Assembly (NCBI GenBank): GCA_963706575.1 | Contig: CAVPNL010000001.1 | Coordinates: 192,001 to 256,000, forward strand | Direction of reading: 5' to 3' | DNA length: 64,000 nt | Source of the DNA: an uncultured delta proteobacterium | Lineage (GTDB): Bacteria > Desulfobacterota > Desulfobacteria > Desulfobacterales > JAHEIW01 | In this document: one piece after another, positions 40,185 through 64,000 of the stretch | Layout of the letters: each line of letters begins with the position of its first letter | Numbering within the stretch: position 1 is the stretch's first letter | Translations under genes and position numbers: made by a program | The notes under the pieces: generated by a model | What the model was told of the DNA's origin: nothing | Seen by the model: only the letters and a program-made list of their open reading frames with translations | Databases searched by the model: none

Positions 40185-40239
40185 GGAGTGTTGGAGTCCT
40201 GGAGTGGTGGAGAAAGATAGAAATGGAACATTGGAGTGA
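40185..40239. repeat. Octamer tandem repeat
   Basis: GGAGTGTT/GGAGTCCT/GGAGTGGT...GGAACATT/GGAGTGA. Confidence 0.65.
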
Positions 40240-40282
40240 CGGCGTGTCAGGTAAAGTCAAGTTAAGCAGAACATATTCTTCC

Positions 40283-41491: not shown

Positions 41492-41557
41492 GATGCTTCA
41501 TCGTCCTCTGTTTTTTATATCCCAATAACGGATAACAAATAACGAATAACTACTAGT

Positions 41558-42037: not shown

Positions 42038-42041
42038 TTTT

Positions 42042-43166: not shown

Positions 43167-43186
43167 ATGCATCTCCTTTTCACAAT

Positions 43187-43948
43187 TTAGCCAATCATTG
43201 TCAGGCCGCCGTCAATACTCAGAACCTGACCGGTTAGATATCTTGAATCATCGCTGACAAAAAAGGCGACCACATCCGCCACGTCTTCGGGTTCGCCCAG
43301 GCGCCTGAGCGGGATTACGCGTGTCACCGCCTCGGTGTATTTTTGACCCTTTTCGCCCGAATGCAGGTTGTCCCAGAGATCGGTATTCACCGGACCCGGG
43401 CTGACGCAGTTTACCCGGATGTTGTAACGAGCCAATTCTTTGGCCAGCGCTTTGGAGCTGGCCATGATGGCCGCCTTGGTGCCGCAATAAAGGACCTCAC
43501 CGGGGTTGCCGATTCTTCCCGCGTCTGAGCCCAGGCTCACGATATTGCCGCTTTTTTGTTCTACCATGATGGGGATGCAAACATGTGAAGCAATCAGAAA
43601 ACTTTTGTAATTCACATTAATCATTTTTTCCCATAAATCTTCAGCGGTCTCCACAAAGTAGCGGGATTCATCGATCCCGGCATTGTTGATCAGAATGTCA
43701 ACAGATCCCCACTCCTGGTGGATTTTTTCCACCGATTTTTTAACGGTGGCATAATCCGTGACATCGCAGGCAAGCGGGATGGCCTCGACGCCGAATTTGC
43801 GAATTTCTCCGGCAACTTTAAGCCCCAGATCCTTCTGAAGGTTTAAGACAGCCACATTGGCACCATCTTTTGCCAGCCGCAGGGCAATCGCGCGCCCGAT
43901 TCCGCGGGACCCGCCGGTCACAATCGCTGTTTTTCCTTTTAATCCCAT
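43187..43948 (-). CDS. SDR dehydrogenase (BadH/FabG-like)
   Basis: TGGSRGIG, NNAG, SDAGRIG, YCGTK. Confidence 0.9.
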   Translation of the reverse strand: MGLKGKTAIVTGGSRGIGRAIALRLAKDGANVAVLNLQKDLGLKVAGEIRKFGVEAIPLACDVTDYATVKKSVEKIHQEWGSVDILINNAGIDESRYFVETAEDLWEKMINVNYKSFLIASHVCIPIMVEQKSGNIVSLGSDAGRIGNPGEVLYCGTKAAIMASSKALAKELARYNIRVNCVSPGPVNTDLWDNLHSGEKGQKYTEAVTRVIPLRRLGEPEDVADVVAFFVSDDSRYLTGQVLSIDGGLTMIG

Positions 43949-44010
43949 AGTTGAAACCTTTCTAGATTCAAAATTTGTAAGGTTTTACGCATCGCATCTC
44001 AGAAAAGAAT

Positions 44011-45201: not shown

Positions 45202-45232
45202 TTCGAATTCCTTTCGTTCTCCGATCGATCGA

Positions 45233-49640: not shown

Positions 49641-51296
49641 GTGGAAATGAAACTAGAAGGCGTCACACCTTATAAAAAAGAGGATGCGGCTAAGTACAAC
49701 CGGCTGCGTTGGTGGCCGGGGATCCCGCTGGGCGATTTCCTTGATAAGGCAGCGGACATCTATCCTGATAAAGAGGCGCTTGTTGATGGGAAACAGCGTT
49801 TCACCTATGCTCAACTCAAAAACGAAACCGATAAATTAGCCATCGGTTTCATTGATCTTGGCATTAAACCGCTCGATCGCGTTCTTGTTCAGCTGCCCAA
49901 CTGGTTTGAGTTTATTCACACCTATTTTGCGCTCCAGAAGATCGGCGCGATTCCTATTTTGCTGTTGGCAAAACACCGCCAGAATGAAATAAACCACCTG
50001 CTGCACCTGACCACGGCCAACTCCTGGGTTGTGGCGGAAAGATATCACAAGACGGATTATTTGCCGATCATCGATGATGTCCTGCAGAACAGCACCACCC
50101 TTGAAAATGTCATCCTGGTACGGGCGTCACGGCCCGGCGCTTTTTTAAGTCTGGAAAGCCTCATTCAACAAGTAGAGCTGACGGACGCCAATTTGTCCAC
50201 TCTGGCCGACCGAAGACCGGACCCAATGCAGGTGGCGCACATGGGTCCCACCGGCGGCACGACCGGATTGCCCAAAGCAGCTCCCAGAACTCACAATGAT
50301 TATATGTCCCGGGTGGAATACGCAGCCCGGGCCTGTGAATTCAATAATCATGACATTTGCCTTGTCGCCGCTCCTGCATCTCATGATCTTACCTTCAGCA
50401 TGGCGATCTGCATTACCATTTTCACATTTGGCAAACTTGTCATGTTGGACTCATTTGAACCCCAGGCGATTTGCGAAACCATCGAAAGGGAAAAAGTAAC
50501 TGCCATTGTCTGGGTGCCCACCCTGGCATCCCGCCTGATCCATTTCAATGGTCTCAAAGACTATGACCTGAGCTCATTGAAAAAAATGCATTGCGGCGGA
50601 GGTGTAAGCTCTCCGGAACTGATCAGGGCCATTGATGAAAAACTCGATTGCACTTTTTTTAACGGTTACGGAGGAACCGAGGGCATGAGTCTTCTTACCA
50701 GGCCCTCCTATAGCCTTGAGCGTGTATGCAACTCCGTGGGGCGGCCCACCTGTCCTTACGATAGTTATAAAATTGTGGACGAAAACGGCAATGAACTGCC
50801 CCCTAATACCCCGGGAGAGTTGATTGTCAAAGGTCCCGGTATTTTTTCGGGCTATTACAAAATGCCGCAGGAAAACGAGAGGGTATTCGATAAAAATGGA
50901 TATTTCAGGACCGGCGACCAGGCCATGATCAACGATTCTGGAGATTTTGTTTTAACCGGCAGGCTAAAGGAGATGATCAATCGGGGCGGTGAAAGCATCA
51001 GCGCTACCGATATCGAAAACCTGATGGTGACCCACCCCGGGATCATCACCACGGCGGTTGTGCCGATGCCGGACCCGGAACTGGGAGAAAGGGTCTGTGC
51101 TTACGTGCAGCGCGCGTCCGGGGCAGAACTTGATTTCGAAAAGATTATATCTTTTTTGAAAGAACAGGGCGCTTCGGTTCTTCAATTGCCCGAGAGAATC
51201 GAGTTTATGGATGAGTTGCCTTACACCAAAGCAGAGAAAATAGATAAACAGGCACTGGTCAAAGATATCAAAATGAAAATCAAAGACGAAAAATAA
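49641..51296 (+). CDS. Aryl-acid adenylating enzyme / CoA ligase (DHB-AMP ligase-like)
   Basis: TGGTTGLPKAAPRTHNDY, YGGTEG, FRTGD, GRLKEMINRGGE. Confidence 0.88.
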   Translation: MEMKLEGVTPYKKEDAAKYNRLRWWPGIPLGDFLDKAADIYPDKEALVDGKQRFTYAQLKNETDKLAIGFIDLGIKPLDRVLVQLPNWFEFIHTYFALQKIGAIPILLLAKHRQNEINHLLHLTTANSWVVAERYHKTDYLPIIDDVLQNSTTLENVILVRASRPGAFLSLESLIQQVELTDANLSTLADRRPDPMQVAHMGPTGGTTGLPKAAPRTHNDYMSRVEYAARACEFNNHDICLVAAPASHDLTFSMAICITIFTFGKLVMLDSFEPQAICETIEREKVTAIVWVPTLASRLIHFNGLKDYDLSSLKKMHCGGGVSSPELIRAIDEKLDCTFFNGYGGTEGMSLLTRPSYSLERVCNSVGRPTCPYDSYKIVDENGNELPPNTPGELIVKGPGIFSGYYKMPQENERVFDKNGYFRTGDQAMINDSGDFVLTGRLKEMINRGGESISATDIENLMVTHPGIITTAVVPMPDPELGERVCAYVQRASGAELDFEKIISFLKEQGASVLQLPERIEFMDELPYTKAEKIDKQALVKDIKMKIKDEK

Positions 51297-51317
51297 CGTC
51301 CGTTCAAAGGAAACCTG

Positions 51318-51836
51318 GTGACAGATAGGAAAAAACACGAAAGAGAGACGATTCGTCTCACCATAAATGATGTGGTTCAGGAATTTGAAATTGGTGACCA
51401 CGCTTATCAAGTGACACCCTACGAGACGCTGGCACAGACGCTCAGAGAGACGCTGGGTCTGAAGGGGACCAAAACAGGATGCAATCAAGGCGCATGCGGC
51501 TCGTGCACGGTTTTAATGGAGGGAATTCCTGTTTTGTCATGTATGCTGCTGACCATCGAATGCGACGGGAAACAGATCACCACCATCGAAGGTCTTCAAG
51601 ATCAAACAACGGGTAAATTGGATGAGATTCAACAGGCCTTCATCGATCACACCGCCTTTCAATGCGGGTTTTGCACCCCCGGTCTTATTATGGCATCAAA
51701 GGCGTTGCTGAGCAAAAATCCGTCTGCGACCGAAGCAGAGATCAAACAGGCCCTCTCCGGTCACTATTGCCGGTGTATCAGTCACTACCATGTTGTCGAG
51801 GCCCTCATAACGGTTAGCGGGAAAAGCAGAAAATGA
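51318..51836 (+). CDS. Xanthine dehydrogenase family 2Fe-2S subunit
   Basis: GCNQGACGSCTV, QCGFCTPG, CRC. Confidence 0.93.
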   Translation: MTDRKKHERETIRLTINDVVQEFEIGDHAYQVTPYETLAQTLRETLGLKGTKTGCNQGACGSCTVLMEGIPVLSCMLLTIECDGKQITTIEGLQDQTTGKLDEIQQAFIDHTAFQCGFCTPGLIMASKALLSKNPSATEAEIKQALSGHYCRCISHYHVVEALITVSGKSRK

Positions 51837-54106
51837 CATTCCAAAAAGAATACAGGTATATCGGCAAGGCCATGCCCCGCAAAGACGCTGTCGGAATCGT
51901 TACCGGGAAAGCGCAGTACATTGATGATGTGGAACTCCCCAGAATGCTCCATGGAAAGGTGCTGAGGAGCCCATACCCGCATGCGCTGATCAAAAATATC
52001 GACACCACCGACGCTGAAAAATCGCGCGGCGTAAAGGCCGTTTTGACGTATAAAAATGTGCCTCGCTGGATGACCGGAACACCGCGACATGTCCGGGTCC
52101 TGGATGAAAAGGTGCGCTATGTGGGGGATGCGGTGGCGCTGGTTGCGGCGGAGACCGAAGCCATGGCCCGGGATGCTTTGGCGCTCATAGAAGTGAGCTA
52201 CGAGCAGCTGCCTGCCGTATATGACGTTGAGGACGCCTTAAAACCGGATGCGCCCCAGTTATATGATGATTTTCCGGGCAACCTTCTTCCGCTGGATGTC
52301 CCTGTCTTCGGGCCCAAAACCCTGTCGGCAATAGAACTTGGAGATATTGAGAAAGGCTTTGCGGATTCCGATTTTATTAGTGAGGGGACTTTTTCCTATG
52401 AAAATATCCCCAATCCGCTCCCGATTGAATCACCCGGTGTGATTGCCGAATGGAGCGAACCCAATCATCTGACGGTCTGGTCCGCTACCCAGTGCGCATA
52501 CTGGCACCGTCATATGATGATGCCCAGGATGGGGTTCCCTGATATCAGGACCATCGGCACCCACTGCGGCGGCAGTTTTGGATCCAAAAATTACTCCGCC
52601 CAGCCGATGCTGTATGCAGCGGCCTTAGCCCGGGCCGCCGGCAGACCGGTAAAAGTATGCTTCAGCAAGGAAGAGCATTTCGGCGCGTTCGTTTTGCGGC
52701 TGGGCTCAAGATTTCGGGGCAAGGTGGGCCTAAAAAAAGACGGCAGCGTGAAAGCCGTCTCCGGCGAATGGCTGGTGGACACGGGCGCATTTTCAGACCA
52801 GGCCCAGGCCCAGGTTGCCGTCGGATTGGGTGAGGCCCAGCTGATGCTGCGGTGTTCCAACTGGGATCTGAAGACGAAGCTGGTTTGCACCAATAGATGT
52901 GCTTCGGGAATGGTCAGAGGGTTTGGTGGACAGGAGCTGCAGAGCGCGCTGCTTCCCGTTTTTGAGGACGCCATGGCCCAGGGGGACATCGATCCGGTCG
53001 AATTTTTCAAAAAGAACTTTGTCAAGCCCGGTGAGGGATATTACTGGCGCGACGGAAATTGGTGGGTTTCAAAGGGCAAAGATTATTCGGCGGCCATAGA
53101 GAGCGGGGCGCGAGCGTTTGGCTGGGCGGAGAAGTGGAAAGGCTGGCTCAAACCCTCGGCTGTCAACAACAGCAAACGGATTGGTGTGGGCGTGAGTGTG
53201 CATGGTAACGCCGATGTGGGCGAAAGTGTTTCTGAAGCTTACGTGCGGTTGAATCCAGACTCCACCGTTACCATACACGCCTGCGTTGCCGAGTCAGGGA
53301 TGGGGCAAAGAAGCAGTCTCTGCAAAATGGTAGCCGAAACGCTAAAGCTTCCCCTTGAACGGGTGAATATGACGCCCCCCGACAGCCTGATCAACCCCTT
53401 TGATTTTGGGCTGGTGGGTTCACGGGGGACCTATGCGCTGGGATCAGCGGTTATTTCAGCCGCCGAAGACGCCAAAGAAAAGCTTTTTAAAATGGCAGAG
53501 GACAAGCTGGAAGCAGCGCCGAGTGATCTGGATAGCAAAGATGGAATGGTTTTTGTCAAAGGAAGCCCGGATAAAGGGATACCCTGGAGAAAGGCTATCG
53601 GGATAATGCAAACCTGCACCGGATTCGGACGCTTCCAGCCCGACTACTGCATGCCAAACTTTCTGGCACTGTTTGCAGAAGTAGAAGTGGATACGGAAAC
53701 AGGGAAATTGGATTTGCTGAGAGTGGTTACCGCAACGGATGTCGGCCAGATCATTGATCCGCCATCCCTTGAGGGCCAGATGCATGGGGCTCTTGGTGCT
53801 GCCGGGATCGACACCGCCATTTTCGAAGAATCGCTCATAGATAAAAACAGCGGACATATGCTGAACCTGAATATGATGGATTATAAATGGCGTTCTTTTC
53901 TTGAACTGCCCCGATTTGAAAACAAGATCTTAGAGACCTCCATCCAGACGCATCGGTACAAGGCAATCGGTGTCGGAGAGATTTCCACTTCGCCCGGGCC
54001 GGGCGCGGTGTTAATGGCAGCTTCCAATGCCATGGGTAAAAGATTAACAGGGTATCCGCTGACACCTGATAAAATCCTCAAGGCTCTGGGAAAAATCAAT
54101 CCCTGA
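51833..54106 (+). CDS. Xanthine dehydrogenase family molybdopterin subunit
   Basis: LRSPYPHA, GGSFGSK, RGFGG, GSRGT, DVG, GVGE. Confidence 0.93.
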   Translation: MTFQKEYRYIGKAMPRKDAVGIVTGKAQYIDDVELPRMLHGKVLRSPYPHALIKNIDTTDAEKSRGVKAVLTYKNVPRWMTGTPRHVRVLDEKVRYVGDAVALVAAETEAMARDALALIEVSYEQLPAVYDVEDALKPDAPQLYDDFPGNLLPLDVPVFGPKTLSAIELGDIEKGFADSDFISEGTFSYENIPNPLPIESPGVIAEWSEPNHLTVWSATQCAYWHRHMMMPRMGFPDIRTIGTHCGGSFGSKNYSAQPMLYAAALARAAGRPVKVCFSKEEHFGAFVLRLGSRFRGKVGLKKDGSVKAVSGEWLVDTGAFSDQAQAQVAVGLGEAQLMLRCSNWDLKTKLVCTNRCASGMVRGFGGQELQSALLPVFEDAMAQGDIDPVEFFKKNFVKPGEGYYWRDGNWWVSKGKDYSAAIESGARAFGWAEKWKGWLKPSAVNNSKRIGVGVSVHGNADVGESVSEAYVRLNPDSTVTIHACVAESGMGQRSSLCKMVAETLKLPLERVNMTPPDSLINPFDFGLVGSRGTYALGSAVISAAEDAKEKLFKMAEDKLEAAPSDLDSKDGMVFVKGSPDKGIPWRKAIGIMQTCTGFGRFQPDYCMPNFLALFAEVEVDTETGKLDLLRVVTATDVGQIIDPPSLEGQMHGALGAAGIDTAIFEESLIDKNSGHMLNLNMMDYKWRSFLELPRFENKILETSIQTHRYKAIGVGEISTSPGPGAVLMAASNAMGKRLTGYPLTPDKILKALGKINP

Positions 54107-54141
54107 CTTGTGCAAGATGCAAGTAGATAGGAGATAGTAAA

Positions 54142-55140
54142 GTGAAGGCATTCAAGCACTTTAATGCCACCTCGGTCGATGACGCCATTTCGCTGATGCG
54201 CTCATCTAAAGGCAATACCAACCTGATTGCCGGTGGCACAGATTTGTTGGGCGTACTCAAAGATGAAATCCTGCCGGACTATCCTGAAGCCCTTATCAAC
54301 ATCAAAACCATTCCCGGGTTGGATGATGTTAAGCAAAACAAGAAAGGGCTGAAAATAGGCGCCCTGACCAAATTGGCCGATATAATTGCACATCCGTTGG
54401 TTAGAAAGAACTACCCCATTTTGTCCAAAGCAGCAGAAGCCGTGGCCACACCTGAAATTCGCAACATGGCCACCCTGGGGGGCAACCTGTGCCAGGGCAC
54501 GAGGTGCTGGTATTATCGATACCCGCATCACATGGGCGGGAGAATCATTTGCTATCGCAAAGAAAAAGCGCCCTGTCAGGCTGTCAAAGGCGATAACCGT
54601 TATCATGCCATTATGGGTGCAAAGGTGTGTTTCGCCGTTTGTCCCTCAGACACCGCCATAGCGCTCACGGCCCTGGGAGCCAAACTCGAAATCAAAGGTC
54701 CCCAAAAGGCTCGAAAAGTATCCGTCGATGAATTTTTCACCATACGCGGCAATATCCTCGAACCCGATGAGCTCTTAACGCAGATTGAGATACCCAGGCC
54801 TGCACCGGAGGCACGACAGGAATTTATCAAATATACATTAAGAAAGCCCGTTGATTTTGCCGTTGCCAGTGTCGCCGCGGTCGTTAAGATGCAGGATGGA
54901 ATTTGCCAAGATGCGCGCATCGTACTCGGAGCCGTCGCTCCGACACCGGTTAGGGCCGTTGATTCAGAAAAACTCCTGAAAGGCAAGGTTGCCAGTGAAA
55001 AGGGGATTGCCGAGGCCGCCGAGGCAGCGGTTAAGGATGCGAAGCCGATGCGGATGAATGCGTATAAGGTGGAAATAACCAAGACATTGGTAAAAAGAGC
55101 TATTTCGCAGTGCGTCAGCGTAAAAGTGGATCTCCGCTAA
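54142..55140 (+). CDS. Xanthine dehydrogenase family FAD subunit with [4Fe-4S] insertion
   Basis: AGGTDL, IRNMATLGGNLCQGTRCWYYR...C...C...CFAVCPSD. Confidence 0.9.
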   Translation: MKAFKHFNATSVDDAISLMRSSKGNTNLIAGGTDLLGVLKDEILPDYPEALINIKTIPGLDDVKQNKKGLKIGALTKLADIIAHPLVRKNYPILSKAAEAVATPEIRNMATLGGNLCQGTRCWYYRYPHHMGGRIICYRKEKAPCQAVKGDNRYHAIMGAKVCFAVCPSDTAIALTALGAKLEIKGPQKARKVSVDEFFTIRGNILEPDELLTQIEIPRPAPEARQEFIKYTLRKPVDFAVASVAAVVKMQDGICQDARIVLGAVAPTPVRAVDSEKLLKGKVASEKGIAEAAEAAVKDAKPMRMNAYKVEITKTLVKRAISQCVSVKVDLR

Positions 55141-55162
55141 GTGTAATGTTCCACAAATGTAT

Positions 55163-55354
55163 GGTTTCAAGGTTCATAGGTTCATAGGTTCCGGGTTCAG
55201 GGGTTCAAGGGTTCTCGTTTCAGAGGTCAGAAGTCAGAATACAGAAAACAGAAAGCGGGGGTTTATTTCATGTCATAGTCGCTGGTCTCTATCGTCTGTC
55301 GCCTGACCTCTGATATTTGCCTTCTGTCATCTGGCCTCTGTCATCTGACCTCTG
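55163..55354. repeat. Compound 7/8-mer repeat array between convergent genes
   Basis: GGTTCATA-type units, then CAGAGGT/CAGAAGT/CAGAATA and inverted CTGACCT/CTGTCAT/CTGGCCT units running into the MFS 3' end. Confidence 0.8.
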
Positions 55355-56637
55355 TATTTTCGGGGAGCGGCAAACCAGCAAAAAAGGCAAGAAAGTAAAG
55401 AGGTGACAATTACAAGGATAAAAGCCAATTGATAGCTCTGGGTTTTATCAAATATAAATCCCGCGATCCAGGCACCAAAAGCACCGGCGATTCCGATGCC
55501 GGCTTCCAAAAATCCAAAGATCAGGCCAAATATTCTTCCTTTAAATAAATCCGCAGCTATAGCCATAAACATCGGGGCAGTGACACCCCAGCCCATTCCG
55601 AAAAAGATAGCATAACTGTAGATAAGGATTCTCGACCCCATTATTTCGAATAAAAGCAGAGAACCTGCTCCCAGGCAGGCGCAGATAATTCCCAATGTAT
55701 ACGTTAATTCGCGACTGATATGGTCGGAGAGCCAGCCCCAGAAAATTCTAAAAATGGATGAAAGAATCCCAACGAGCGCAAAGATAAAGGCCGCTGTCAT
55801 TTTAGTGACTCCCTGATCGACAAGAAATCCTACGTTGTGGACAAGGATGATAAAAAATCCGATGAATCCTAAGAATGGAAAAATGATCAACGCCCAAAAC
55901 CGCATGGTATTCATGGCTGTTCTGAGGGTCCAGTCACTACTTTTATGAGCTGATGATTTTTTATGGGGATGAGGATTCTTATGTATTTCCCCTGGATTCC
56001 TTCCGTCAGGATGTTGCCCCAATTCTTCAGGCTTATGTCGCAAGAAGATTGCGTTGGCCGGAACTAAAAAGACAAGAACCAGACCGCCGGTGATCGCAAA
56101 AGTTAAGCGCCAACCCCACCAATTAATAAATTGCTGGGACATTGGAACCAGCAAAAAGGTGCCAAGGCCCATGCCCGACACTGCAATCCCGCTTGCCAAG
56201 CCGCGCTTCTTTTCAAACCAGTGGGCTAAAATAGCGGAGTAGCTGACAATGCCGATGCAGGTGATGCCGGCTCCCATGACCACGCCGTAAAGGAGGTAAA
56301 ATTGAGTGAGGGTTTCGATATAGCTACAGACAATCAATCCGAATGCCAGAACCAGAATTCCCGGAACGATGACGCGGCGGGGGCCAAAGCGGTCAATTAA
56401 ACCGCCCACCAGAGGTGCCATTAGCGTATAAATGATAAGGGCTACAGATTGAACGCCGGCGGAATCTGAGCGATTCCATGGGAATTCTTCCAGCAAGGTG
56501 ACATAAAAAACTGAAAAACTTGACCGTATGCCAAACCAGAAGGTCATCGAGATCAGCGCCACTGCAACGATAACCCAGCCGTAGTAGAAGTCCGAGGAAC
56601 AAACACTTCTTCGGGGACTCGCTGAATTGTTCAGCAT
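55327..56637 (-). CDS. MFS transporter (MCT/OFA-like)
   Basis: YYGW, GGLIDRFGPRR, WFEKKRGLA; about 12 TM segments. Confidence 0.92.
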   Translation of the reverse strand: MLNNSASPRRSVCSSDFYYGWVIVAVALISMTFWFGIRSSFSVFYVTLLEEFPWNRSDSAGVQSVALIIYTLMAPLVGGLIDRFGPRRVIVPGILVLAFGLIVCSYIETLTQFYLLYGVVMGAGITCIGIVSYSAILAHWFEKKRGLASGIAVSGMGLGTFLLVPMSQQFINWWGWRLTFAITGGLVLVFLVPANAIFLRHKPEELGQHPDGRNPGEIHKNPHPHKKSSAHKSSDWTLRTAMNTMRFWALIIFPFLGFIGFFIILVHNVGFLVDQGVTKMTAAFIFALVGILSSIFRIFWGWLSDHISRELTYTLGIICACLGAGSLLLFEIMGSRILIYSYAIFFGMGWGVTAPMFMAIAADLFKGRIFGLIFGFLEAGIGIAGAFGAWIAGFIFDKTQSYQLAFILVIVTSLLSCLFCWFAAPRKYRGQMTEAR

Positions 56638-57158
56638 TTAACAGTTTTCCACTGGTTACTTTCGTCAATTAGGCGGCACTCATCAGTCCAGTCACATACA
56701 TTACCGATTTTTTCGGGACTTTCAAAAATGGCGCATTTGAGCAGGCACTCGGATTTTTTGTCATCCACTTCAATGGCGGCTACATAGGTTGTTTCGAAAT
56801 TTAGCTTCTCTATGATTTGATCCAGGATCATGTTGATGATCGGGCAATTGTAAATTTTGATGCCTCGTTTTCTCAGCGCTAACTCTTTTGGAATATGGAT
56901 GCAACTGTCAACTTTGGCGTAAAGCAAAATATCCTGTCCGCCAATGGAATAGGATATATCTTTGGCCAGGCCGGCGGTGATGATTTCCCGAATGCAGTTC
57001 TCAATAATCTCGGCGGGGGTTGTGCCCTGAATATCTCTTGATTGGATAAAATCGACACCGATAAATTCCGTCTTCCAGCAGGCGCAGTCCGACAGCTCGT
57101 GGTAAAAAAGCTCCTCCAGTCTGGCCATCATATCATTGAAGTATTCGGTTCTGTCCAT
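56631..57158 (-). CDS. Hypothetical Cys-rich protein, possibly V4R-like fold
   Basis: VDSCIH...NCP...SEC spacing; tightly coupled within the operon. Confidence 0.55.
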   Translation of the reverse strand: MDRTEYFNDMMARLEELFYHELSDCACWKTEFIGVDFIQSRDIQGTTPAEIIENCIREIITAGLAKDISYSIGGQDILLYAKVDSCIHIPKELALRKRGIKIYNCPIINMILDQIIEKLNFETTYVAAIEVDDKKSECLLKCAIFESPEKIGNVCDWTDECRLIDESNQWKTVKC

Positions 57159-57821
57159 CTAAGGTCTCTCCTTATTGCCAAATTTTTCCCAGTAAACCAG
57201 ATCTTCCAATGGCAGCTTGGGCCTGGGATGTTTGCGTTCTTCGGCCGGAAAACCGACGGCGACATAGCAAATGACTTTGTACTCGTTCATACCCGTCGGA
57301 ATGCCCAGGATTTCTTTGAATTTAATGGCGTCGCGGGAAGTTGCCACCGGCCCGTGCACCCAGCAAGCGCCTAAGCCCAGAGAATGGGCTTCCAGAAGTA
57401 TGTTTTCGGTGGCGGCAGACAAATCATATGGGACATCCACGGACCCGATCTGCAAGTCACCGATAACGGCGATGACCACCGGTGCGTGTTTGGCAAACTC
57501 GGAGACTTCCCCGGAGTACATGAACTCCAGGACCCTGGCGCGTTTAGCGGGGTCCTGAATTTTCTCAAACCGCTTCTGCATTTCACCCATGCAGTACCAG
57601 GCTGTCATACGGGAGCCGCTACCGATCTTGGCCAGATCTCCGATCTTATTTTTTGTCTCCTGATCCCTGATGACAATAAATCGCCAGGGCTGATAGTTTT
57701 CGCCGGTGGGTGCCCACCTCGCCGCCTCAAGTATTTTATCGATCATCTCATCGGGTACCGGATCGGGCTCGTATCGGCGGATGCTTTTTCTGCTGATTAA
57801 GACGTCTAAGATGTCTTGCAT
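57159..57821 (-). CDS. Nitroreductase family protein
   Basis: RKSIRRY, APTGENYQPWRF, LGLGACW. Confidence 0.92.
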   Translation of the reverse strand: MQDILDVLISRKSIRRYEPDPVPDEMIDKILEAARWAPTGENYQPWRFIVIRDQETKNKIGDLAKIGSGSRMTAWYCMGEMQKRFEKIQDPAKRARVLEFMYSGEVSEFAKHAPVVIAVIGDLQIGSVDVPYDLSAATENILLEAHSLGLGACWVHGPVATSRDAIKFKEILGIPTGMNEYKVICYVAVGFPAEERKHPRPKLPLEDLVYWEKFGNKERP

Positions 57822-57959
57822 GGTTAATCTCCTGTGTGATGCCGAGTAATTTAAATAATTGAATCTATTCCTGCTTATCGGCTTACCCTTGATTTGTAAA
57901 AGGCATATCGCGCGGGGCAGAGGGCATAGAGTAAATAAAACTGGAACGCTTAATTAGGA

Positions 57960-58889
57960 TTAAAGCTTTAGCAATTTGCGTGCGGCTTCCCCCAAAATTA
58001 AATTGATCTCCCGGTCGCTGAATTCCAAATCCGTTTCGCGTTTCTTGAATGCCTGGACCCATTCTTTCAGAGGGCACATCAGATTGGGATAGGGAGCATC
58101 AGTAGCAAACAGGATTTTTTCGGGGCCGGCAATGTCAATGATATCCCGCAGCCATTGATAAAAGCGCTTTTTCGGCAGTTTTTTATAGGGTTTCTGCCAT
58201 AGTGACAGATCAACATAGACATTTTTAAGCCATGCTGCTGCCTGGATGGCTTCCTGCCACCAGCCCACATCGCCACAGTGGGCAAAAATAAAATCGACTT
58301 CCGGATAGCGGGCGGCAGCCGATGCAAAATAAACCGGACGTGAATTCTCCCAACGCAGGGCAACCGAAGGGGCCCCGCCGGTGTGCACCATTACCGGAAT
58401 ATTCCATTCGGCTGCTTTCTCATAGATCCAATAGCAGGCTGGATCATCCGCCATATAGCCAACGCCGGCATGGAGTTTGAAACCTTTCATGCCCCATTCA
58501 TGATACGCCTGCTCACAATGTTGCACAGCTCCCTTGCGTCGCGGATCAATAGCCATAAAAGGGATTAAGCGGTCTTTATGCCGCTTGGCGGCATCCGCAT
58601 AGAGCTTGTTCTGATCAAATATATGGATGGGAGGCTCGCCGAAAAGGAGTCCGTAATCCACACCGAAGATAATTGTTTTATCCACACCGGCGGCGTCCAT
58701 TTCCTCGATAATGTTGTCGGCCTGCGGATCTATGAGAGGTCTGACGACGTCTTGGGTAAAATCGCGATCGCTGATTTCAACATTGTGGGTTTTACGGTAC
58801 ATCATTGCGAAACTTTTCTGGGCCCCTCGAATGTAATCGCCCTGAACCGTCCCGGCGGCTACTAGATGTCGGTGTACATCGATAATCAT
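57960..58889 (-). CDS. Amidohydrolase_2 family protein
   Basis: IDVHRH, GFKLH, VHTG, FAHCG, FATDAP. Confidence 0.9.
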   Translation of the reverse strand: MIIDVHRHLVAAGTVQGDYIRGAQKSFAMMYRKTHNVEISDRDFTQDVVRPLIDPQADNIIEEMDAAGVDKTIIFGVDYGLLFGEPPIHIFDQNKLYADAAKRHKDRLIPFMAIDPRRKGAVQHCEQAYHEWGMKGFKLHAGVGYMADDPACYWIYEKAAEWNIPVMVHTGGAPSVALRWENSRPVYFASAAARYPEVDFIFAHCGDVGWWQEAIQAAAWLKNVYVDLSLWQKPYKKLPKKRFYQWLRDIIDIAGPEKILFATDAPYPNLMCPLKEWVQAFKKRETDLEFSDREINLILGEAARKLLKL

Positions 58890-59038
58890 ACGCTTTTCTC
58901 CTTACTGTTAGTGCCTTTACCGCCCTTTATCCAAGGGGGTAGTATAGCTGTTATTCGCTAAATTTTTTCTTAACGTTCTCCGCGAGCTCTGCGGTGAATT
59001 AAATCTTTTCACTTCAAAGCCCAGACGATTGCCTCCTC

Positions 59039-59437
59039 TCAGGTATTCAATTTTTCCTTGATGTAGGTCGCAATTTCGGCCGGCGGGGTTCCCGGTAAAA
59101 ACACTTCCTGCACGCCCATTTTTTTAAGCTGCGGGATTTGATGTTTTAATATAATGCCACCGGCAATTACCATTATGTTTTCCAAACCCTTTTCGCTGAG
59201 TGTCTGCAGAACCTTTGGAACCAGAACCATGTGGTCACCGGCCAGAAAACTCAGTCCCACAACATCAACGTCTTCCTGCACCGCGGCCGTGGCAATGTGT
59301 TCAGCAGTTTGACGAAGACCGGTGTAAACGACCTCCATACCGGCATCCATCAAGGACCGCGCTACAATTTTAGCCCCGCGATCATGGCCGTCAAGACCGA
59401 TCTTGGCTATCAAGACTCTTATTTTGGAGTTTTCCAT
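59039..59437 (-). CDS. Acyl-CoA mutase cobalamin-binding subunit
   Basis: KIGLDGHDRG (DxHxxG), VGLS, AGG, FLPGT; AGGAG before ATG 59437. Confidence 0.95.
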   Translation of the reverse strand: MENSKIRVLIAKIGLDGHDRGAKIVARSLMDAGMEVVYTGLRQTAEHIATAAVQEDVDVVGLSFLAGDHMVLVPKVLQTLSEKGLENIMVIAGGIILKHQIPQLKKMGVQEVFLPGTPPAEIATYIKEKLNT

Positions 59438-59536
59438 ATTCTTCTCCTGATGGATGATACCTTTTCGATAAAAACTATTGTTTTGAAGCATGCTTGATAG
59501 ATGGTTTTTCCCATTACGCCACCTTTTCAAGCGCCA

Positions 59537-61207
59537 TCATATGTATGTCGATGCCTGAAATTCACCCCATTTTTCGCGCATGACGCTGCAGATCTCACCG
59601 ATGGTGGCATAGCTTTTAACGGCTTCGATGATATGGGGCATGAGGTTTTCGTTTTTATCAATGGCCAGTGCAAGGCCGGTCAGTTGTTTTTGCACATCGT
59701 CGGCATTTCTGCCGGCTCTAATCGCGGCGACCTTTTGCTTCTGGCTGCCTTCAACACGATCATCAAGTTCGAAAATTTCCTGACCTTCCAAATCGTTTTC
59801 AGATGGCATACCATATTTGTTCAATCCGACGATGACACGCTCGCTGCTATCTACACGTTTTTGAAATTGTACACTTGATTCCTGAATTTCTTTAAAAACA
59901 TATCCATTTTCAATGGCTCCGAGCATGCCGCCCATGGCATCGATTTTTTCCAAGTATGCTGCTGCCTGCTGTTCGATTTCATTGGTGAGGGATTCTACAA
60001 AATAGGAACCGGCCAGCGGGTCGATGGTGTTGCCGAGGCCGCATTCGTGCGCCAGGATCTGTTGGGTCCTGAGCGCAATCCGGGCGGAATCCTCGGAAGG
60101 AATTGCGTAACCCTCGTCCCAGCAGGCCGTATGAATGGCCTGATTGCCGCCCAAGATGCCCATTAAAGCATGCATTGCCACCCTGACAATATTGTTGATA
60201 GGCTGCTGCGGAACCAAGGTTGAGCCGCAGGATCCGGTGAAGATCCGGAACAGCTGACTTTTGGGATTTTCGGTCTGGAAGCGTTCGCGCATGATTTTTG
60301 CGTATAATCTGCGGGCGGCTCGATATTTGGCGATTTCCTCGAAAAAATCCATGTAGCATCCCAGGCTGTAGGACAAACGCGGCGCAAAATAATCCACCTC
60401 CAGACCCCGCTCCTGAGCCTTCTCAATATAGGTGATGGTGTCAGCCAACGTAAAGGCAAGTTCCTGGATGGCGTTGGCACCGGCTTCTCTGAAATGGTAG
60501 CCGGTTATGTTGAGTGTGTTCCATCTTGGAACGTGATGGGCGCAATGCTCCACGATGTCCAAAACCAGTTTGATGCTGGGCTCCGGGGGGAAGATATAAG
60601 TGCCCCGGGCGATGAACTCTTTCAAAATGTCGTTCTGGGTGGTGCCCATAAGTTTTTCGGGAGAAACGCCCTGCTTTTCACCCACGGCAATGTACATGGC
60701 CAGCAGAATCGTGGCCGGCGCATTGATGGTCATGGAGGTCGAGACCTTATCAAGGGGAATACCCTGAAAAATAATCTCCATGTCGGCTAAAGAATCCACG
60801 GCGACTCCCACGCGGCCGACAGACCCCTCTGATAGGGGATCATCCGAGTCGTAGCCTAATTGGGTCGGCAGATCGAAGGCGATGGACAAGCCTTTCATAC
60901 CTTGATCCAAAAGATAGCGGAAACGATGATTCGTGTCTTCAGCTTTACCGAAACCGGCATAATTGCGCATGGTCCAGAGGCGCCCGCGATACATGCTGGG
61001 ATAAACGCCGCGAGTGTAAGGGTACTGACCGGGATATCCCAGTGCCTCGTCGTAGTCCATGCCCTCCAGATCCTGCGGGGAGTACAACCGCTTAACCGCG
61101 ATACCGCTTTCGGTCGTGAATTCTTCCTGTCTTTCAGGAGATCGGTCCAACACTTTTTTAAGTGTTGTGTTTTCCCATTGTTCCAGACTTTCTGTATTTT
61201 GTTTCAT
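59537..61207 (-). CDS. Acyl-CoA mutase large subunit (methylmalonyl-CoA mutase family)
   Basis: PGQYPYTRG, WTMRNYAGFG, QNDILKEFIARG, GYHFREAG, DPLAGS. Confidence 0.93.
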   Translation of the reverse strand: MKQNTESLEQWENTTLKKVLDRSPERQEEFTTESGIAVKRLYSPQDLEGMDYDEALGYPGQYPYTRGVYPSMYRGRLWTMRNYAGFGKAEDTNHRFRYLLDQGMKGLSIAFDLPTQLGYDSDDPLSEGSVGRVGVAVDSLADMEIIFQGIPLDKVSTSMTINAPATILLAMYIAVGEKQGVSPEKLMGTTQNDILKEFIARGTYIFPPEPSIKLVLDIVEHCAHHVPRWNTLNITGYHFREAGANAIQELAFTLADTITYIEKAQERGLEVDYFAPRLSYSLGCYMDFFEEIAKYRAARRLYAKIMRERFQTENPKSQLFRIFTGSCGSTLVPQQPINNIVRVAMHALMGILGGNQAIHTACWDEGYAIPSEDSARIALRTQQILAHECGLGNTIDPLAGSYFVESLTNEIEQQAAAYLEKIDAMGGMLGAIENGYVFKEIQESSVQFQKRVDSSERVIVGLNKYGMPSENDLEGQEIFELDDRVEGSQKQKVAAIRAGRNADDVQKQLTGLALAIDKNENLMPHIIEAVKSYATIGEICSVMREKWGEFQASTYI

Positions 61208-61251
61208 AATTAAAACCTATGGAAAAAAACATCTAAAAATATTTACGAACC

Positions 61252-61962
61252 CTAAACTCGTGCGGACCCGGTGCTGTCATATTCTTCATCTGTCAATGCT
61301 CGAATGACAAGGTCTCTGGCCTTTTGTATATGGCTTCGCATTAATTCGCTGCTGCCGATGATATCTTTGTTTTTCATCTTACTGACAAGACGATTGTGTT
61401 CATCAACTGCAACGGCCATTCGTTGGATATCGTAATTCTCCAACCGGGCTCGCAGGTAAATGTGCTCAAAATTCCTTTTCAGCAGCCATTTGAGGACGTT
61501 GTTCTTCGTCATGGCTGCGATTTGAAGATGAAACGCAGAATCCAGTAAAAATTTTTTGCGGGTGTAGTAATGGGGTTGATAAGCAGCATGTTCGCGGAGC
61601 TTATTCTCCAGTTCTTGGATATCACCATTATCGGAAAGTTTGATTGCCTGTTCAACGGTGTAAACTTCCAATGCTTCTCTAACCCCGAATGCATCCCAAA
61701 CTTCCTGCAGGTCAATGGGTCGTACGTAAAATCCGCGGAAGCTCTCAAATGCGACAAATCCTTCTTGAACCAGACGATTCAGAGCATTGGTAATCGGAGT
61801 ACGTGACATGTTGAATTTATCGACGAGGTCCTGATTGACGAGTCGTTGACCGGGGATAAGCTTTTGATCAAAAATCATCTGCTTTATCAGGCGGTAGGCT
61901 TCCTCAATCCTTGTGATCGAATTGTTGGGGTGATCTGCTTTTTGAATCATTTTGATTGACAT
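61252..61962 (-). CDS. GntR (FCD) family regulator
   Basis: PGQRL...MSRTPITNALNRL...RGFYV; REALE; FH. Confidence 0.93.
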   Translation of the reverse strand: MSIKMIQKADHPNNSITRIEEAYRLIKQMIFDQKLIPGQRLVNQDLVDKFNMSRTPITNALNRLVQEGFVAFESFRGFYVRPIDLQEVWDAFGVREALEVYTVEQAIKLSDNGDIQELENKLREHAAYQPHYYTRKKFLLDSAFHLQIAAMTKNNVLKWLLKRNFEHIYLRARLENYDIQRMAVAVDEHNRLVSKMKNKDIIGSSELMRSHIQKARDLVIRALTDEEYDSTGSARV

Positions 61963-62145
61963 CGTTACGAACCACCTTTAAGGCGAAACTAATTAAAAAA
62001 TTAAATGCAATATTAAATCCAATAATAGGGGTCTGTCAAGAAAAAAAACCGGATCGCAAAAAATGTCTAAATTCATTATATTTGTTATTAAATTAGTATT
62101 ATATGGTTGAAATATAAAAATTGAAACTGCGAAATAATTTTTTTC

Positions 62146-62192
62146 TTGACAATCAATTTAATAGAATATAATTCAAAATTGAATTCAATTTT
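62146..62192 (+). promoter_or_regulatory. Promoter with perfect palindrome (putative GntR operator)
   Basis: TTGACA at 62146 and TATAAT at 62167 (short 15-bp spacer); AAAATTGAATTCAATTTT at 62175-62192. Confidence 0.55.
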
Positions 62193-62290
62193 ATGGCATA
62201 ACCGACCGGATCTTGAACAACTCACTTGGGTGATGGTTTTGCGGTTACGCAACTGACAATGGGAAAGTGCCTCACACAGGAGAATACGCT

Positions 62291-62686
62291 ATGATTAAGA
62301 AAATCAAGCATATTGGGGTTGCCGTCGATGACTTGCAAACAGCCAGAGATTTTTTCCAGGAAACGTTTGACCTATCCACTTCAGATCAGGAAAATTTCGG
62401 TGAACTTCTATTTTCTTTTATCCCCATGGAAGGAACGAATCTGGAACTTCTTCAATCCACTCAAACCGATGGTCAGATTGCAAAATTTATTCAAAAAAGA
62501 GGGCAGGGGATTCACCACATTGCCCTGGAGGTGGATGACGTCCAGGTTGAGTTGGACCGCCTTAAGGCCAAAGGGCTGAAGCTTATTAACGAGAAACCGT
62601 ATCGCAATGCCCATCAGGATCTGGTCGCATTTATACATCCCAAAAGCACATTCGGGGTCTTGATAGAATTAATTCAGACGGACTAA
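62291..62686 (+). CDS. Methylmalonyl-CoA epimerase family (VOC)
   Basis: HIGVAV, LELL, GIHHIALEV, FIHPKSTFGVLIEL; AGGAG RBS. Confidence 0.92.
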   Translation: MIKKIKHIGVAVDDLQTARDFFQETFDLSTSDQENFGELLFSFIPMEGTNLELLQSTQTDGQIAKFIQKRGQGIHHIALEVDDVQVELDRLKAKGLKLINEKPYRNAHQDLVAFIHPKSTFGVLIELIQTD

Positions 62687-62725
62687 GTCGAAAAATACAT
62701 TTCTAAGCAATGAAAGATTAATGAC

Positions 62726-64000
62726 ATGGCACAGAAAAAGACCTGGGAAAAAGAGCTTAAAAAGTTTCATGCCAGAGAGAAGGAAGCCCAACTGGGCGGC
62801 GGGGAAGCACGTTTGCAAAAGCTCAGGGAAAAGGGCATTTTGACCGCCCGCGAACGCATCGACTATATTCTGGATGCGGGTAGCTTTGTAGAGCTCAATA
62901 TGATGGCCGAACACCAGTGCCGCGATTTCGGAATGGACAAGAAAAAATTTGCAGGCGACGGTGTTGTCACCGGCTATGGGACAATCGCCGGCCGCAAACT
63001 CTTCATTTATTCAGAAGACGCTACTGTTTTAGGAGGATCGACCGGAAAGACCCATGGTGCCAAAATTCATTACATTCTCAAGCTGGCCCGGGAGAATATG
63101 GTGCCGGTCATTTGTCTGAACGCATCGGCCGGAGCCCGTATCCAGGAAGGCATGGACAATGTCTATGGAATTACAGGAATGTTTTACCAGAATTCACTCA
63201 ACTCCGGTGTCGTTCCCCAAATTGCTGCAATTATGGGCGCCTGCACCGGCGGTGCGGCCTATTCGGCGGCGTTGTGTGACTTCATCGTCCAGGTGGAAAA
63301 AACAGCGCATGTCTTTATTACCGGACCGGCGGTTATTAAAGAAGTTACCGGAGAGGAAGTTTCGTTTGAAGAATTGGGAGGCGCCAAGGTTCACAGCACC
63401 AAGTCCGGTGTCGTTCATCTGGCAGCCAAAGATGACAGGCACTGCCTGGACCTGATCAAAGGCCTACTGGATTATCTTCCTCAAAATAACCGGGAAAAAC
63501 CGGCCCCTAAATCCTGCACGGATCCTGTTGCTAGGGAAGTGCCGGAACTCATCGACATGGTTCCCATCCAAATGTCCAAGACGTATGATATGAAGCAGGT
63601 TATTCGTGCGATTGTGGATGAAGGTGATTTTTTTGAAATCCATGCCGTCTTCGCCATGAATATGGTGGTCGGATTTGCGCGCATGGGAGGACGCGTGGTC
63701 GGCTTGGTCGCCAACAATCCTCGTTTTATGGGCGGCTGCCTGGATATCAATTCTTCCGACAAAGCCGCCCGTTTCATTCGAACCTGCGATGCGTTTAATA
63801 TCCCGATCATCTCTCTTGTTGACGTGCCCGGATTCCTGCCGGGACTCGATCAGGAACACAACGGCATCATTCGCCACGGGGCGAAAATGCTCTATGCCTG
63901 GACCGAGGCAACGGTGCCAAAGATTTCGTGTATACTCAGAAAAATGTATGGCGGGGCGATTCCCGCCATGGGGGTTCACCAGATCGGCTTTGACCAGGTC
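62726..64000 (+). CDS. Acyl-CoA carboxylase/decarboxylase carboxyltransferase subunit (3' end outside window)
   Basis: Not in the ORF track. Translates as MAQKKTWEK...LTARERID...GDGVVTG...GARIQEG...SGVVPQI...FITGP...VDVPGFLPG. Confidence 0.92.
   Translation, partial: MAQKKTWEKELKKFHAREKEAQLGGGEARLQKLREKGILTARERIDYILDAGSFVELNMMAEHQCRDFGMDKKKFAGDGVVTGYGTIAGRKLFIYSEDATVLGGSTGKTHGAKIHYILKLARENMVPVICLNASAGARIQEGMDNVYGITGMFYQNSLNSGVVPQIAAIMGACTGGAAYSAALCDFIVQVEKTAHVFITGPAVIKEVTGEEVSFEELGGAKVHSTKSGVVHLAAKDDRHCLDLIKGLLDYLPQNNREKPAPKSCTDPVAREVPELIDMVPIQMSKTYDMKQVIRAIVDEGDFFEIHAVFAMNMVVGFARMGGRVVGLVANNPRFMGGCLDINSSDKAARFIRTCDAFNIPIISLVDVPGFLPGLDQEHNGIIRHGAKMLYAWTEATVPKISCILRKMYGGAIPAMGVHQIGFDQV

Follow-up and report, generated by a model that had tools for sequence, protein, structure and literature searches.

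A split B12-dependent acyl-CoA mutase of uncharacterised specificity class in a probable ring-acid catabolic cassette of an uncultured delta proteobacterium

Introduction

On what does a B12-dependent acyl-CoA mutase act when it binds the carboxylate of its substrate with the residues of methylmalonyl-CoA mutase (MCM) and has three other segments rebuilt? The question is raised by a locus at the 3' end of a 64,000-nucleotide (nt) stretch of DNA from an uncultured delta proteobacterium (JAHEIW01; GCA_963706575.1, contig CAVPNL010000001.1, positions 192,001-256,000 of the forward strand), hereafter the window, in which the genes of a split mutase stand in one of two divergent operons. B12-dependent acyl-CoA mutases are known from few substrate classes, and with each class added a pathway has been opened up. 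An initial annotation had read the enzyme as a dicarboxyl-CoA mutase remodelled for a bulkier substrate, with a dedicated GntR regulator, an epimerase and a carboxyltransferase. Our analysis leads us to consider it moderately probable that the enzyme is an adenosylcobalamin-dependent heterodimer with a new, uncharacterised dicarboxyl-CoA specificity among the acyl-CoA mutases, working in a catabolic module for ring acids.

Results

The mutase keeps the carboxylate-binding residues and is rebuilt in three segments

The open reading frames (ORFs) called here for the mutase, its small subunit, the GntR regulator, the epimerase and the carboxyltransferase have the positions given in the initial annotation, and Pfam and NCBIfam concur on them (Table 1). 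The large subunit covers positions 1-512 of 512 of the PF01642 profile and thus has a full-length barrel domain, and the small subunit carries the DxHxxG His-on motif as GLDGHDRGAK. Residues were numbered from a HMMER alignment to Propionibacterium shermanii MutB (1req_A), with the published number taken as the seqres index + 1, an offset that we presume from its fit to the residue names. Tyr89, Gln197, Arg207, Tyr243, His244 and Glu370 are kept in this alignment, so that the proposed equivalents of Tyr89, Gln197, Arg207 and His244 were borne out and the carboxylate-binding set of a dicarboxyl-CoA mutase is retained, in agreement with the proposed dicarboxyl-CoA substrate. Three segments, which we take from MCM structure papers to form the wall of the substrate pocket, are changed: 286-288 (F286Y, F287S, W288L), 327-334 (T327I, H328F, S329T, Q330G, T331S, S332C, W334S) and 366-368 (N366A, S367C, L368W). 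The altered residues replace ones kept from P. shermanii to human MCM; the wall set of strict MCMs (Phe286/Phe287, His328, Gln330, Asn366) is absent here and their carboxylate-binding and catalytic set is present. The motifs RIFTGSCG, IHTACWDE and LSYSL, in which these changes had been noticed, are all found in the translation and are kept in the 120 best relatives from a database search (78-94% identical to the mutase), each of which has PRLSYSLGC, IHTACWDE, FR[IV]F[TSA]GSCGS and MR[NQ]YAGF.

Two curated family models did not claim the enzyme. It scored 608.9 bits against the MCM equivalog NF006944 (cut-off 876) and 304 bits against NF045497, which tests for isobutyryl-CoA mutase/IcmF (cut-off 1500), and its solved relatives ranked as 2-hydroxyisobutyryl-CoA mutase (HCM, 4r3u; 533.6 bits), human MCM (473), P. 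shermanii MCM (436.6) and IcmF (252). In isobutyryl-CoA mutases the places of Tyr89 and Arg207 are taken by Phe and Gln, and the window mutase has Tyr and Arg there. HCMs are marked by an Ile for Tyr89 and by the Asp of an S-x-D-F-D segment; here RNYAGF and SIAFD stand against RQIAGF and STDFD of 4r3u.

The mutase belongs to a clade of its own

An exhaustive profile search of 1.84 billion cluster representatives gave 23,441 relatives at E <= 0.001. Among the full-length representatives none was more than 53% identical to the mutase (fragments reached 66%), so that the clade collapses to about one cluster at 50% clustering. A FastTree tree of 95 rows was built from 40 clade members taken from the related loci described below, the six large-subunit paralogs of the genome and 49 representatives of 500-730 amino acids (aa), from P0293 to P0344, shorter and longer ones being left out. 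Its 42 clade rows formed one group with a support of 100 and a stem of 0.38, and the canonical MCM and the other paralogs of this genome fell outside it; the phylogeny that the initial annotation had called for, run with these paralogs and representatives, thus put the mutase in a separate clade. The 42 clade members from genomes share R[IT][FY][ST]GSCGS, PRLSYSL[GS]C and IHTACWDE. A plasmid collection yielded 434 records, all less than 60% identical and none of the clade.

The six paralogs are a canonical fused MCM (717 aa; RTHCQTSGW / LHTNSFDE / RLSFFF), an IcmF-like fusion (RMFAGEG and QGQNT at the Tyr89 and Arg207 places), two other split forms and two clade members, the second of which (C1:424860-426533) is 72% identical to the window mutase and has the same pocket motifs. 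Among the paralogs compared and the solved HCM, residues H328, Q330, N366 and F286/F287 are retained by the canonical MCM, the IcmF-like paralog and HCM, and are lost only in this clade and in one of the split forms, which lies in a cluster of the anaerobic indoleacetate (iaa) type. The clade is therefore neither canonical MCM nor the mutase of the indoleacetate pathway, for both of which the genome has separate paralogs. The IcmF-like fusion (1092 aa; L142, C1:272001-292000) adjoins a TetR gene, another Amidohydro_2 gene and CoxE/AAA maturation genes, and in the same region an IclR regulator and a ligase accompany a third XDH-family trio. Split mutases of other 50%-identity clusters (P0297, P0298, P0302, P0306, P0323 and others) vary at 326-333, with for example RVFAGGNG, RVYAGSGG or RAAAGCNG; with so many representatives carrying other non-canonical segments at this place, the family appears to hold many more unassigned specificity classes.

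The same segments are rebuilt in an indoleacetate-type paralog

The iaa-type paralog (C1:491649-493283) is 42.5% identical to the window mutase and lies in another clade of the tree. It keeps the Tyr, Arg and His, and reads RGLFGGGGS / TALCSFDE / RFSFNL in the three segments. Its cluster (L141, C1:489000-502000), which looks complete, comprises a family III CoA-transferase, a GntR/FCD regulator, the B12-binding small subunit, the mutase large subunit, hydantoinases A and B, a PaaK-like ligase, a thiolase-like gene and XDH-family FAD and FeS subunits; the hydantoinases have caprolactamase alpha as their best curated match. The gene set of the iaa pathway (hydantoinase-type lactamase, PaaK-like ligase, family III CoA-transferase) thus surrounds this paralog and not the window mutase. 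Since the paralog sits in such a cluster, it is expected to take an aryl-succinyl-CoA, and the rebuilding of the same three segments in it is the best internal evidence that these segments set the size or nature of the substituent. By this analogy, the rebuilt segments of the window mutase would fit a bulkier substituent, which lends partial support to the earlier proposal of a bulkier substrate.

A flavoprotein, a 175-aa protein and an Amidohydro_2 enzyme accompany the mutase

Related loci were collected with a degenerate DNA pattern for IHTACWDE in one genome per species (185,579 species). The pattern occurred at 49 places, 45 of which encode a clade mutase; L117, L127, L129 and L133, where no mutase is present, were dropped, and such mutase-free matches include Flavimaribacter. 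Loci with the flavoprotein gene, termed type A, make up 32 of the 45. Within the DNA fetched (10 kb per side, bounded by contig ends), type A loci have the small subunit in 32 of 32 cases, the 175-aa gene in 32, the Amidohydro_2 gene in 29, the carboxyltransferase in 27, the epimerase in 16 and the GntR gene in 11. The regulator, epimerase and carboxyltransferase put forward initially as the context of the mutase do recur; the genes linked most tightly to it, namely the trio of Amidohydro_2, flavoprotein and 175-aa protein at 56631-58889, lie directly outside the interval then considered and had been missed. Epimerase homologs also occur in 6 of the 13 loci that are not of type A, several of which are short and possibly cut contigs, and GntR homologs of at least 50% identity adjoin the mutase in 16 of the 45 loci.

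The usual layout in Desulfobacterota has acyl-CoA dehydrogenase, SDR, crotonase, thiolase, carboxyltransferase and epimerase genes divergent from GntR, mutase large subunit, small subunit, Amidohydro_2, flavoprotein and 175-aa protein, and ends with a ligase, TRAP or MFS gene. Carriers are Desulfobacterota, Burkholderiales and other Pseudomonadota, all metagenome-assembled or uncultured by record title; about a third are Burkholderiales or alphaproteobacterial genomes assembled from metagenomes. The flavoprotein is 77-95% identical across type A loci, Desulfobacterota and Burkholderiales included, which exceeds the identity of the mutase itself. A sample of 150 further genomes from the order, two of them congeneric, contained no ortholog of it, indicating that the cassette is accessory, rare among genomes and moved by horizontal transfer. 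A tandem EthD-domain protein (258 aa) lies near the cassette in seven beta- and alphaproteobacterial loci (for example L134:13668-14444). A literature search found no paper that joins mutase, nitroreductase, amidohydrolase and carboxyltransferase in sulfate reducers.

The trio comprises a predicted metal enzyme and a predicted flavoprotein heteromer

In 21 orthologs of the Amidohydro_2 protein, H6, H8, K138, H140, H169, H204 and D264 are invariant, and the metal-ligand set of the fold (HxH, His, His, Asp) is complete with H6, H8, H169, H204 and D264. Its AlphaFold2 (AF2) model has a mean predicted local distance difference test (pLDDT) of 87, and the best Foldseek matches are LigW, dihydroxybenzoate decarboxylases, BB4693, LigY, LigJ and ACMSD, at 15-21% identity. 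The protein is therefore a predicted metal enzyme for hydroxy-aromatic or unsaturated acids, with a hydrolase/decarboxylase-type fold.

The nitroreductase-family flavoprotein is the most conserved gene of the cassette (86% mean column identity in a 21-ortholog alignment). Its best NCBIfam match is BluB (TIGR02476), at 69.1 bits and below the cut-off of 150, and its solved relatives by sequence include the enone reductase CLA-ER (4qlx) and 8uc3. The 175-aa gene starts with an ATG that abuts the TAG stop of the flavoprotein gene, and it shares its last 7 bases with the MFS gene.

The 175-aa protein had no match in Pfam or NCBIfam and no meaningful sequence match in the PDB; I-CreI rows at E 0.001 or weaker were taken as chance, and the leads from the ESM Atlas were 'ATC hydrolase family' only, at 0.90. 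C25, C86, C105, C138, H20 and E21 are invariant in it, with a HELSxC..WK stretch. VIA-align related its AF2 model (pLDDT 78) to TRAPP Bet3 and to the sensor domains of PoxR and DmpR (Z 8.6-8.0, root-mean-square deviation 3.3-4.8, 138-147 residues) and to the V4R protein 2oso (Z 6.8). The Foldseek E-values for the same fold group, in which the phenol-sensor domains of PoxR, DmpR and MopR were compared, are weak (3e-3 or weaker), so that we assign a V4R/Bet3-like, predicted small-ligand-binding fold with moderate confidence.

A complex of two flavoprotein copies and one 175-aa chain, predicted from our own alignments, scored 0.88 (runs of 0.87, 0.88 and 0.89), and the best of three controls scored 0.01. 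The calibration of this score, by which 116 of 157 solved complexes and 2 of 215 mismatched pairs reach the mark, holds only roughly with such alignments. The runs share at least 93% of their contacts, with a pLDDT of at least 85 for the 175-aa partner, and in the modelled interface its residues 16-32, the invariant stretch, lie against both flavoprotein copies. These models support the prediction that the 175-aa protein binds the flavoprotein dimer.

A second type of cluster carries the same mutase pocket

The second clade mutase of this genome is surrounded by a cluster of another kind, type B, which lies outside the window (C1:424078-437365; L138, L139). Its order is GntR, mutase large subunit, small subunit, XDH-family molybdenum subunit, CoxG, FAD and FeS subunits, family III CoA-transferase, epimerase, isochorismatase-family amidase, M24 hydrolase, ligase and ABC transporter. 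The epimerase is 74% identical to that of the window, the regulator 59%. The XDH-family molybdenum subunit matches 4-hydroxybenzoyl-CoA reductase alpha at 673 bits (cut-off 994), the amidase has RutB and BiuH as best curated matches, and the M24 hydrolase matches ectoine hydrolase. The layout is common to L098, L125 and L136, of which L136 also has an arm of carboxyltransferase, thiolase, SDR and dehydrogenase genes, and the type B mutases form a subclade (support 99) inside the clade. Judged by these gene sets, one mutase pocket and lower pathway appear to be served by at least two different upstream modules.

Genes around the mutase

The minus-strand operon runs from the GntR/FCD gene through the mutase large and small subunits, Amidohydro_2, the nitroreductase-family protein and the 175-aa protein to the MFS transporter; the plus-strand operon begins with the epimerase-family gene, and its carboxyltransferase runs past the window end (Table 1). 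The start of the small subunit is likely ATG 59437, chosen from the ribosome-binding site (RBS), and that of the epimerase likely ATG 62291, from an RBS and ATG read in the sequence.

Table 1. Features of the mutase cassette and its surroundings, in window coordinates
Feature	Position	Strand	Evidence
Acyl-CoA mutase large subunit, 556 aa	59537-61207	-	PF01642 688.4 bits; TIGR00641 726 bits
B12-binding small subunit, ~132 aa	59039-59437	-	PF02310 81 bits; TIGR00640 163 bits; inside ORF 59039-59530
GntR/FCD-family regulator, first gene of minus-strand operon	61252-61962	-	PF00392; PF07729
Amidohydro_2 metal-dependent hydrolase/decarboxylase-fold enzyme, 309 aa	57960-58889	-	PF04909 130.8 bits
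Nitroreductase-family flavoprotein, 220 aa	57159-57821	-	PF00881 114.3 bits
175-aa protein of no named family, V4R/Bet3-like fold	56631-57158	-	predicted model; invariant Cys
MFS carboxylate-type transporter	55327-56637	-	PF07690
Methylmalonyl-CoA-epimerase-family protein	62267-62686 (likely start ATG 62291)	+	TIGR03081 126.3 bits
Carboxyltransferase, MmdA/PccB type, 521 aa	62726-64000 (on to window-equivalent 64291)	+	PF01039
Aryl-acid-type AMP-forming CoA ligase, candidate activating enzyme of the pathway	49641-51296	+	best NCBIfam match (2,3-dihydroxybenzoyl)adenylate synthase
Promoter-like TTGACA-15 nt-TATAAT, then perfect 18-bp palindrome AAAATTGAATTCAATTTT (candidate operator), upstream of epimerase operon	62146-62192	+	read in sequence

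The score of the epimerase exceeds the TIGR03081 cut-off of 114.95. The carboxyltransferase matches PF01039 at 508 bits in its window part and at 594 bits over the full 521 aa, and the full protein scores 695.6 bits against TIGR01117 (MmdA), below the cut-off of 998.8. Downstream of it the genome has a 3-hydroxyacyl-CoA dehydrogenase (HADH), an SDR, a 595-aa acyl-CoA dehydrogenase, an XDH-family trio, a PaaK-like ligase and an ABC transporter; across loci the divergent arm comprises epimerase, carboxyltransferase, thiolase, short-chain crotonase, SDR, HADH and acyl-CoA dehydrogenase genes. The aryl-acid-type ligase scores 401 bits, below cut-off, against its best match; orthologs of it (55-64% identity) adjoin the cassette in 8 of the 32 type A loci, and a benzoate-CoA-ligase-family gene takes the ligase place in beta- and alphaproteobacterial loci. 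Lactate and oxalate/formate MFS families are the best NCBIfam matches of the transporter, all below cut-off; homologs of it occur in only 2 of the 32 type A loci, and others carry TRAP transporter genes.

The palindrome core of AAAATTGAATTCAATTTT was not found in the related loci, so that the candidate operator is a local observation only. A scan for consensus promoters and terminators did not exceed shuffled sequence (15 against 11.1 and 13 against 9.3), and no Rfam family, hence no cobalamin riboswitch, reached its gathering score in 54000-64000.

The cassette has an XDH-family trio on either side (window 49641-55140, and L008:6313-11778, window-equivalent 68313-73778); each trio has a FAD subunit with an insertion of about 45 residues and adjoins a CoA ligase, of the aryl-acid type and PaaK-like, respectively. 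Their assignment as bona fide 4-hydroxybenzoyl-CoA reductases was dropped, all subunits being below curated cut-offs. Further upstream in the window (37829-46888, minus strand) lies an operon of a CoA ligase, an OYE-family flavoenzyme, an SDR, an acyl-CoA dehydrogenase, a flavin reductase, a UPF0261 (Tm-1-like) protein and a 737-aa Mo-bisPGD enzyme, and relatives of the last (35-41% identity) adjoin the cassette in 11 of the 32 type A loci.

Discussion

A proposed pathway and its alternatives

The cassette probably breaks down a ring-derived acid. In the pathway that we infer, in its direction and order of steps as in its substrate and the roles of the trio, the aryl-type CoA ligase would turn a cyclic or aromatic carboxylic acid into its CoA ester, the heteromer of flavoprotein and V4R-fold protein would reduce the activated ring, and the Amidohydro_2 enzyme would open the reduced ring by hydrolysis, leaving the thioester on the branch carbon. 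This position of the thioester would explain why a family III CoA-transferase occurs in only 1 of the 32 type A loci; such a gene is present beside the type B paralog and in the iaa-type cluster. As a substituted succinyl-CoA cannot be beta-oxidised, the mutase would move the thioester, converting a 2-substituted succinyl-CoA (substituent on the thioester-bearing carbon) to a substituted malonyl-CoA; it would hold the carboxylate via Tyr89 and Arg207, with His244 and Tyr243 in catalysis, as in MCM. The epimerase-family protein and the carboxyltransferase would then remove the free carboxyl group, and acyl-CoA dehydrogenase, crotonase, hydroxyacyl-CoA dehydrogenases and thiolase would complete beta-oxidation.

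A more specific version, tentative and by our estimate rather unlikely in this exact form, has the trio as a previously undescribed, ATP-independent ring-reducing and ring-opening system acting on a meta-dihydroxy (hetero)aromatic carbonyl-CoA such as 3,5-dihydroxybenzoyl-CoA or 2,6-dihydroxypyridine-4-carbonyl-CoA. Once the mutase had rearranged the resulting 2-substituted succinyl-CoA, loss of CO2 and one or two beta-oxidation rounds would yield acetyl-CoA. With 3,5-dihydroxybenzoyl-CoA every gene would be used: reduction to a cyclic 1,3-dione and hydrolysis would give (2-oxopropyl)succinyl-CoA, which the mutase would turn into (3-oxobutyl)malonyl-CoA; this would be decarboxylated to 5-oxohexanoyl-CoA and beta-oxidised to acetyl-CoA and acetoacetyl-CoA. 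In the pyridine analogue, citrazinate from isonicotinate would yield carboxymethyl- or carbamoylmethyl-succinyl-CoA, and type B clusters, with their molybdenum hydroxylase and amidases, would supply the same mutase from an N-heterocycle; the route from isonicotinate to citrazinate was reportedly described by Kretzer and colleagues in 1993, and a literature search found no pathway paper on citrazinate or isonicotinate catabolism.

Several points weigh against a new specificity for ring-derived substrates. The role of the three segments as pocket wall is presumed from MCM structure papers, and larger residues (Phe/Tyr328, Trp368) were gained in them as well as smaller ones, so that the pocket need not be bigger overall. 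The epimerase is missing from half of the type A loci in the DNA fetched. Type B clusters share the pocket and have no flavoprotein trio, so the trio is not needed by the mutase as such. The carboxyltransferase might decarboxylate, transcarboxylate or carboxylate, and the mutase could run in the other direction. Finally, no cultured organism was seen among the carriers of the 45 loci, and the cassette is thus not tied to any physiology.

The alternative that survives best, though we rate it as unlikely, is an analogue of ethylmalonyl-CoA mutase (ECM) that interconverts methylsuccinyl-CoA with ethylmalonyl-CoA, or a different pair with small alkyl groups, for instance on an anaerobic route from itaconate, mesaconate or aconitate to butyryl-CoA, with decarboxylation by the Amidohydro_2 enzyme and reduction of the double bond by the flavoprotein. 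Every cassette gene could find a use in it: the thiolase, crotonase and HADH of the divergent arm are of short-chain (acetoacetyl/butyryl) types, CLA-ER among the solved relatives is a C=C reducer of the nitroreductase family, and the fold neighbours of Amidohydro_2 are decarboxylases and a hydratase of unsaturated acids. Against this, the flanking ligases are aryl-acid-like, the 175-aa partner resembles phenol-sensing domains in its predicted fold, the acyl-CoA dehydrogenases, at 595-601 aa, are long forms and the pocket gains aromatic residues. The mutase is split into subunits, and the ECM class is fused.

The trio might instead handle the cofactor for the mutase, in cobalamin processing or repair, like CblC and CblD, which have the nitroreductase fold. 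Its position directly behind a B12 mutase at every occurrence, the lower-ligand synthase BluB as best curated match of the flavoprotein and the lack of a MeaB or adenosyltransferase gene in the cassette would suit such helpers; with the BluB score far below its cut-off, type B clade members that do without the trio, fold neighbours of Amidohydro_2 that are aromatic-acid decarboxylases and hydrolases, and a partner with a predicted small-ligand-binding fold, we find this role improbable.

We also regard it as improbable that the enzyme serves anaerobic hydrocarbon degradation by fumarate addition, as a mutase for (1-methylalkyl)succinyl-CoA or arylalkylsuccinyl-CoA. Such a pathway has the same logic of mutase, carboxyltransferase and beta-oxidation, as stated in PMC8360864, which cites Wilkes et al. 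2002, and the host is of the Desulfobacterales type with many aromatic catabolic genes. Yet the neighbourhoods tabulated for the 45 loci, of about 10 kb, contain no glycyl-radical enzyme, the two PFL-like genes of the genome are on other contigs (C3, C15), Burkholderiales and alphaproteobacterial genomes make up about a third of the carriers, and the constant hydrolase and flavoprotein partners would be superfluous. An ordinary MCM of propionate or succinate metabolism, its motif changes neutral drift, is likewise improbable: the enzyme retains the residues for carboxylate binding and catalysis, the epimerase scores above the cut-off for methylmalonyl-CoA epimerases and the carboxyltransferase is of the MmdA/PccB type, but the genome already has a canonical fused MCM, the changed residues are fixed within the clade where MCMs from P. 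shermanii to human keep theirs, NF006944 is missed, and the cassette is absent from all 150 other sampled genomes of the order, unlike a core pathway.

Occurrence and significance

The window was partly present (shares of 0.37, 0.29 and 0.23) in estuary and sediment metagenome runs from three studies. RNA contigs from four libraries, each of a different study, resembled five genes at 90-99%, namely those for the flavoprotein, mutase, regulator, epimerase and carboxyltransferase. One RNA contig of 261 bases matched a portion of the Amidohydro_2 gene without a difference, and some parts of the window had no such contigs. The RNA contigs come mostly from relatives and RNA libraries may contain DNA, so that they give a faint hint that such cassettes are transcribed in sediments.

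The clade, which is found in metagenomes of estuarine and marine sediment, is well defined by its conserved motifs, full tree support and fixed neighbourhood, and it comes with a ready set of candidate pathway enzymes, among them a predicted flavoprotein heteromer for which no counterpart is known. Identification of the substrate would add a mutase specificity and probably also an anaerobic route for a ring compound, and would give a catalyst for branched or substituted malonyl-CoA building blocks.

Comparison with known systems

With MCM (1req, 2xij) the window mutase shares the fold, the cofactor domain and Tyr89/Gln197/Arg207/Tyr243/His244/Glu370 (436-473 bits); it differs in being split, in the three changed segments and in missing the equivalog cut-off. 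HcmAB (4r3u), the best-scoring solved relative, is also split. HCM has Ile and Asp where the window mutase has Tyr and Ala, and it keeps H328, Q330 and N366; these differences indicate that the substrate class is another. For the flavoprotein, the nearest parallel is the cyclic dipeptide oxidase AlbA/AlbB (8uc3), in which a nitroreductase-fold flavoprotein likewise has a small, translationally coupled partner gene. The 175-aa partner differs in its predicted V4R/Bet3-like fold and four invariant Cys, and is not known to have a detectable sequence relation to AlbB.

Among mutases for substituted substrates, ActD/MatB-MatQ has been proposed to serve as hexylmalonyl-CoA mutase in the biosynthesis of actinonin and matlystatin (PMC5719088). 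As described, it too is a split mutase, of an HCM-like subclass, and is taken to act on alkyl-substituted malonyl- or succinyl-CoA with a paired epimerase; it is biosynthetic, comes from actinomycetes and runs from malonyl to succinyl.

The closest system in its logic is the iaa pathway, the molybdenum enzyme of which was reportedly described by Ebenau-Jehle and colleagues in 2012. In Aromatoleum aromaticum its mutase IaaGH interconverts phenylsuccinyl-CoA and benzylmalonyl-CoA, and the published account lays out ring opening, mutase, CO2 loss and beta-oxidation with IaaB, IaaL, IaaGH and IaaF (PMC8360864). The 2-oxoindoleacetyl-CoA gamma-lactamases are of the hydantoinase type (PMC5214803). 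We made the comparison via the iaa-type paralog of this genome; the exact IHTACWDE pattern had no Aromatoleum or Rhodocyclales record in the search of 185,579 species. The cassette has Amidohydro_2, flavoprotein and V4R-fold protein where the iaa set has a hydantoinase-type lactamase, and epimerase and carboxyltransferase where it has the decarboxylating dehydrogenase IaaF; the family III CoA-transferase of the iaa set is, as noted, nearly absent from type A loci. What the two would have in common is a B12 mutase for a 2-substituted succinyl-CoA that arises from the hydrolytic opening of a heterocycle, followed by loss of CO2 and beta-oxidation, and this is the logic that we propose for the cassette.

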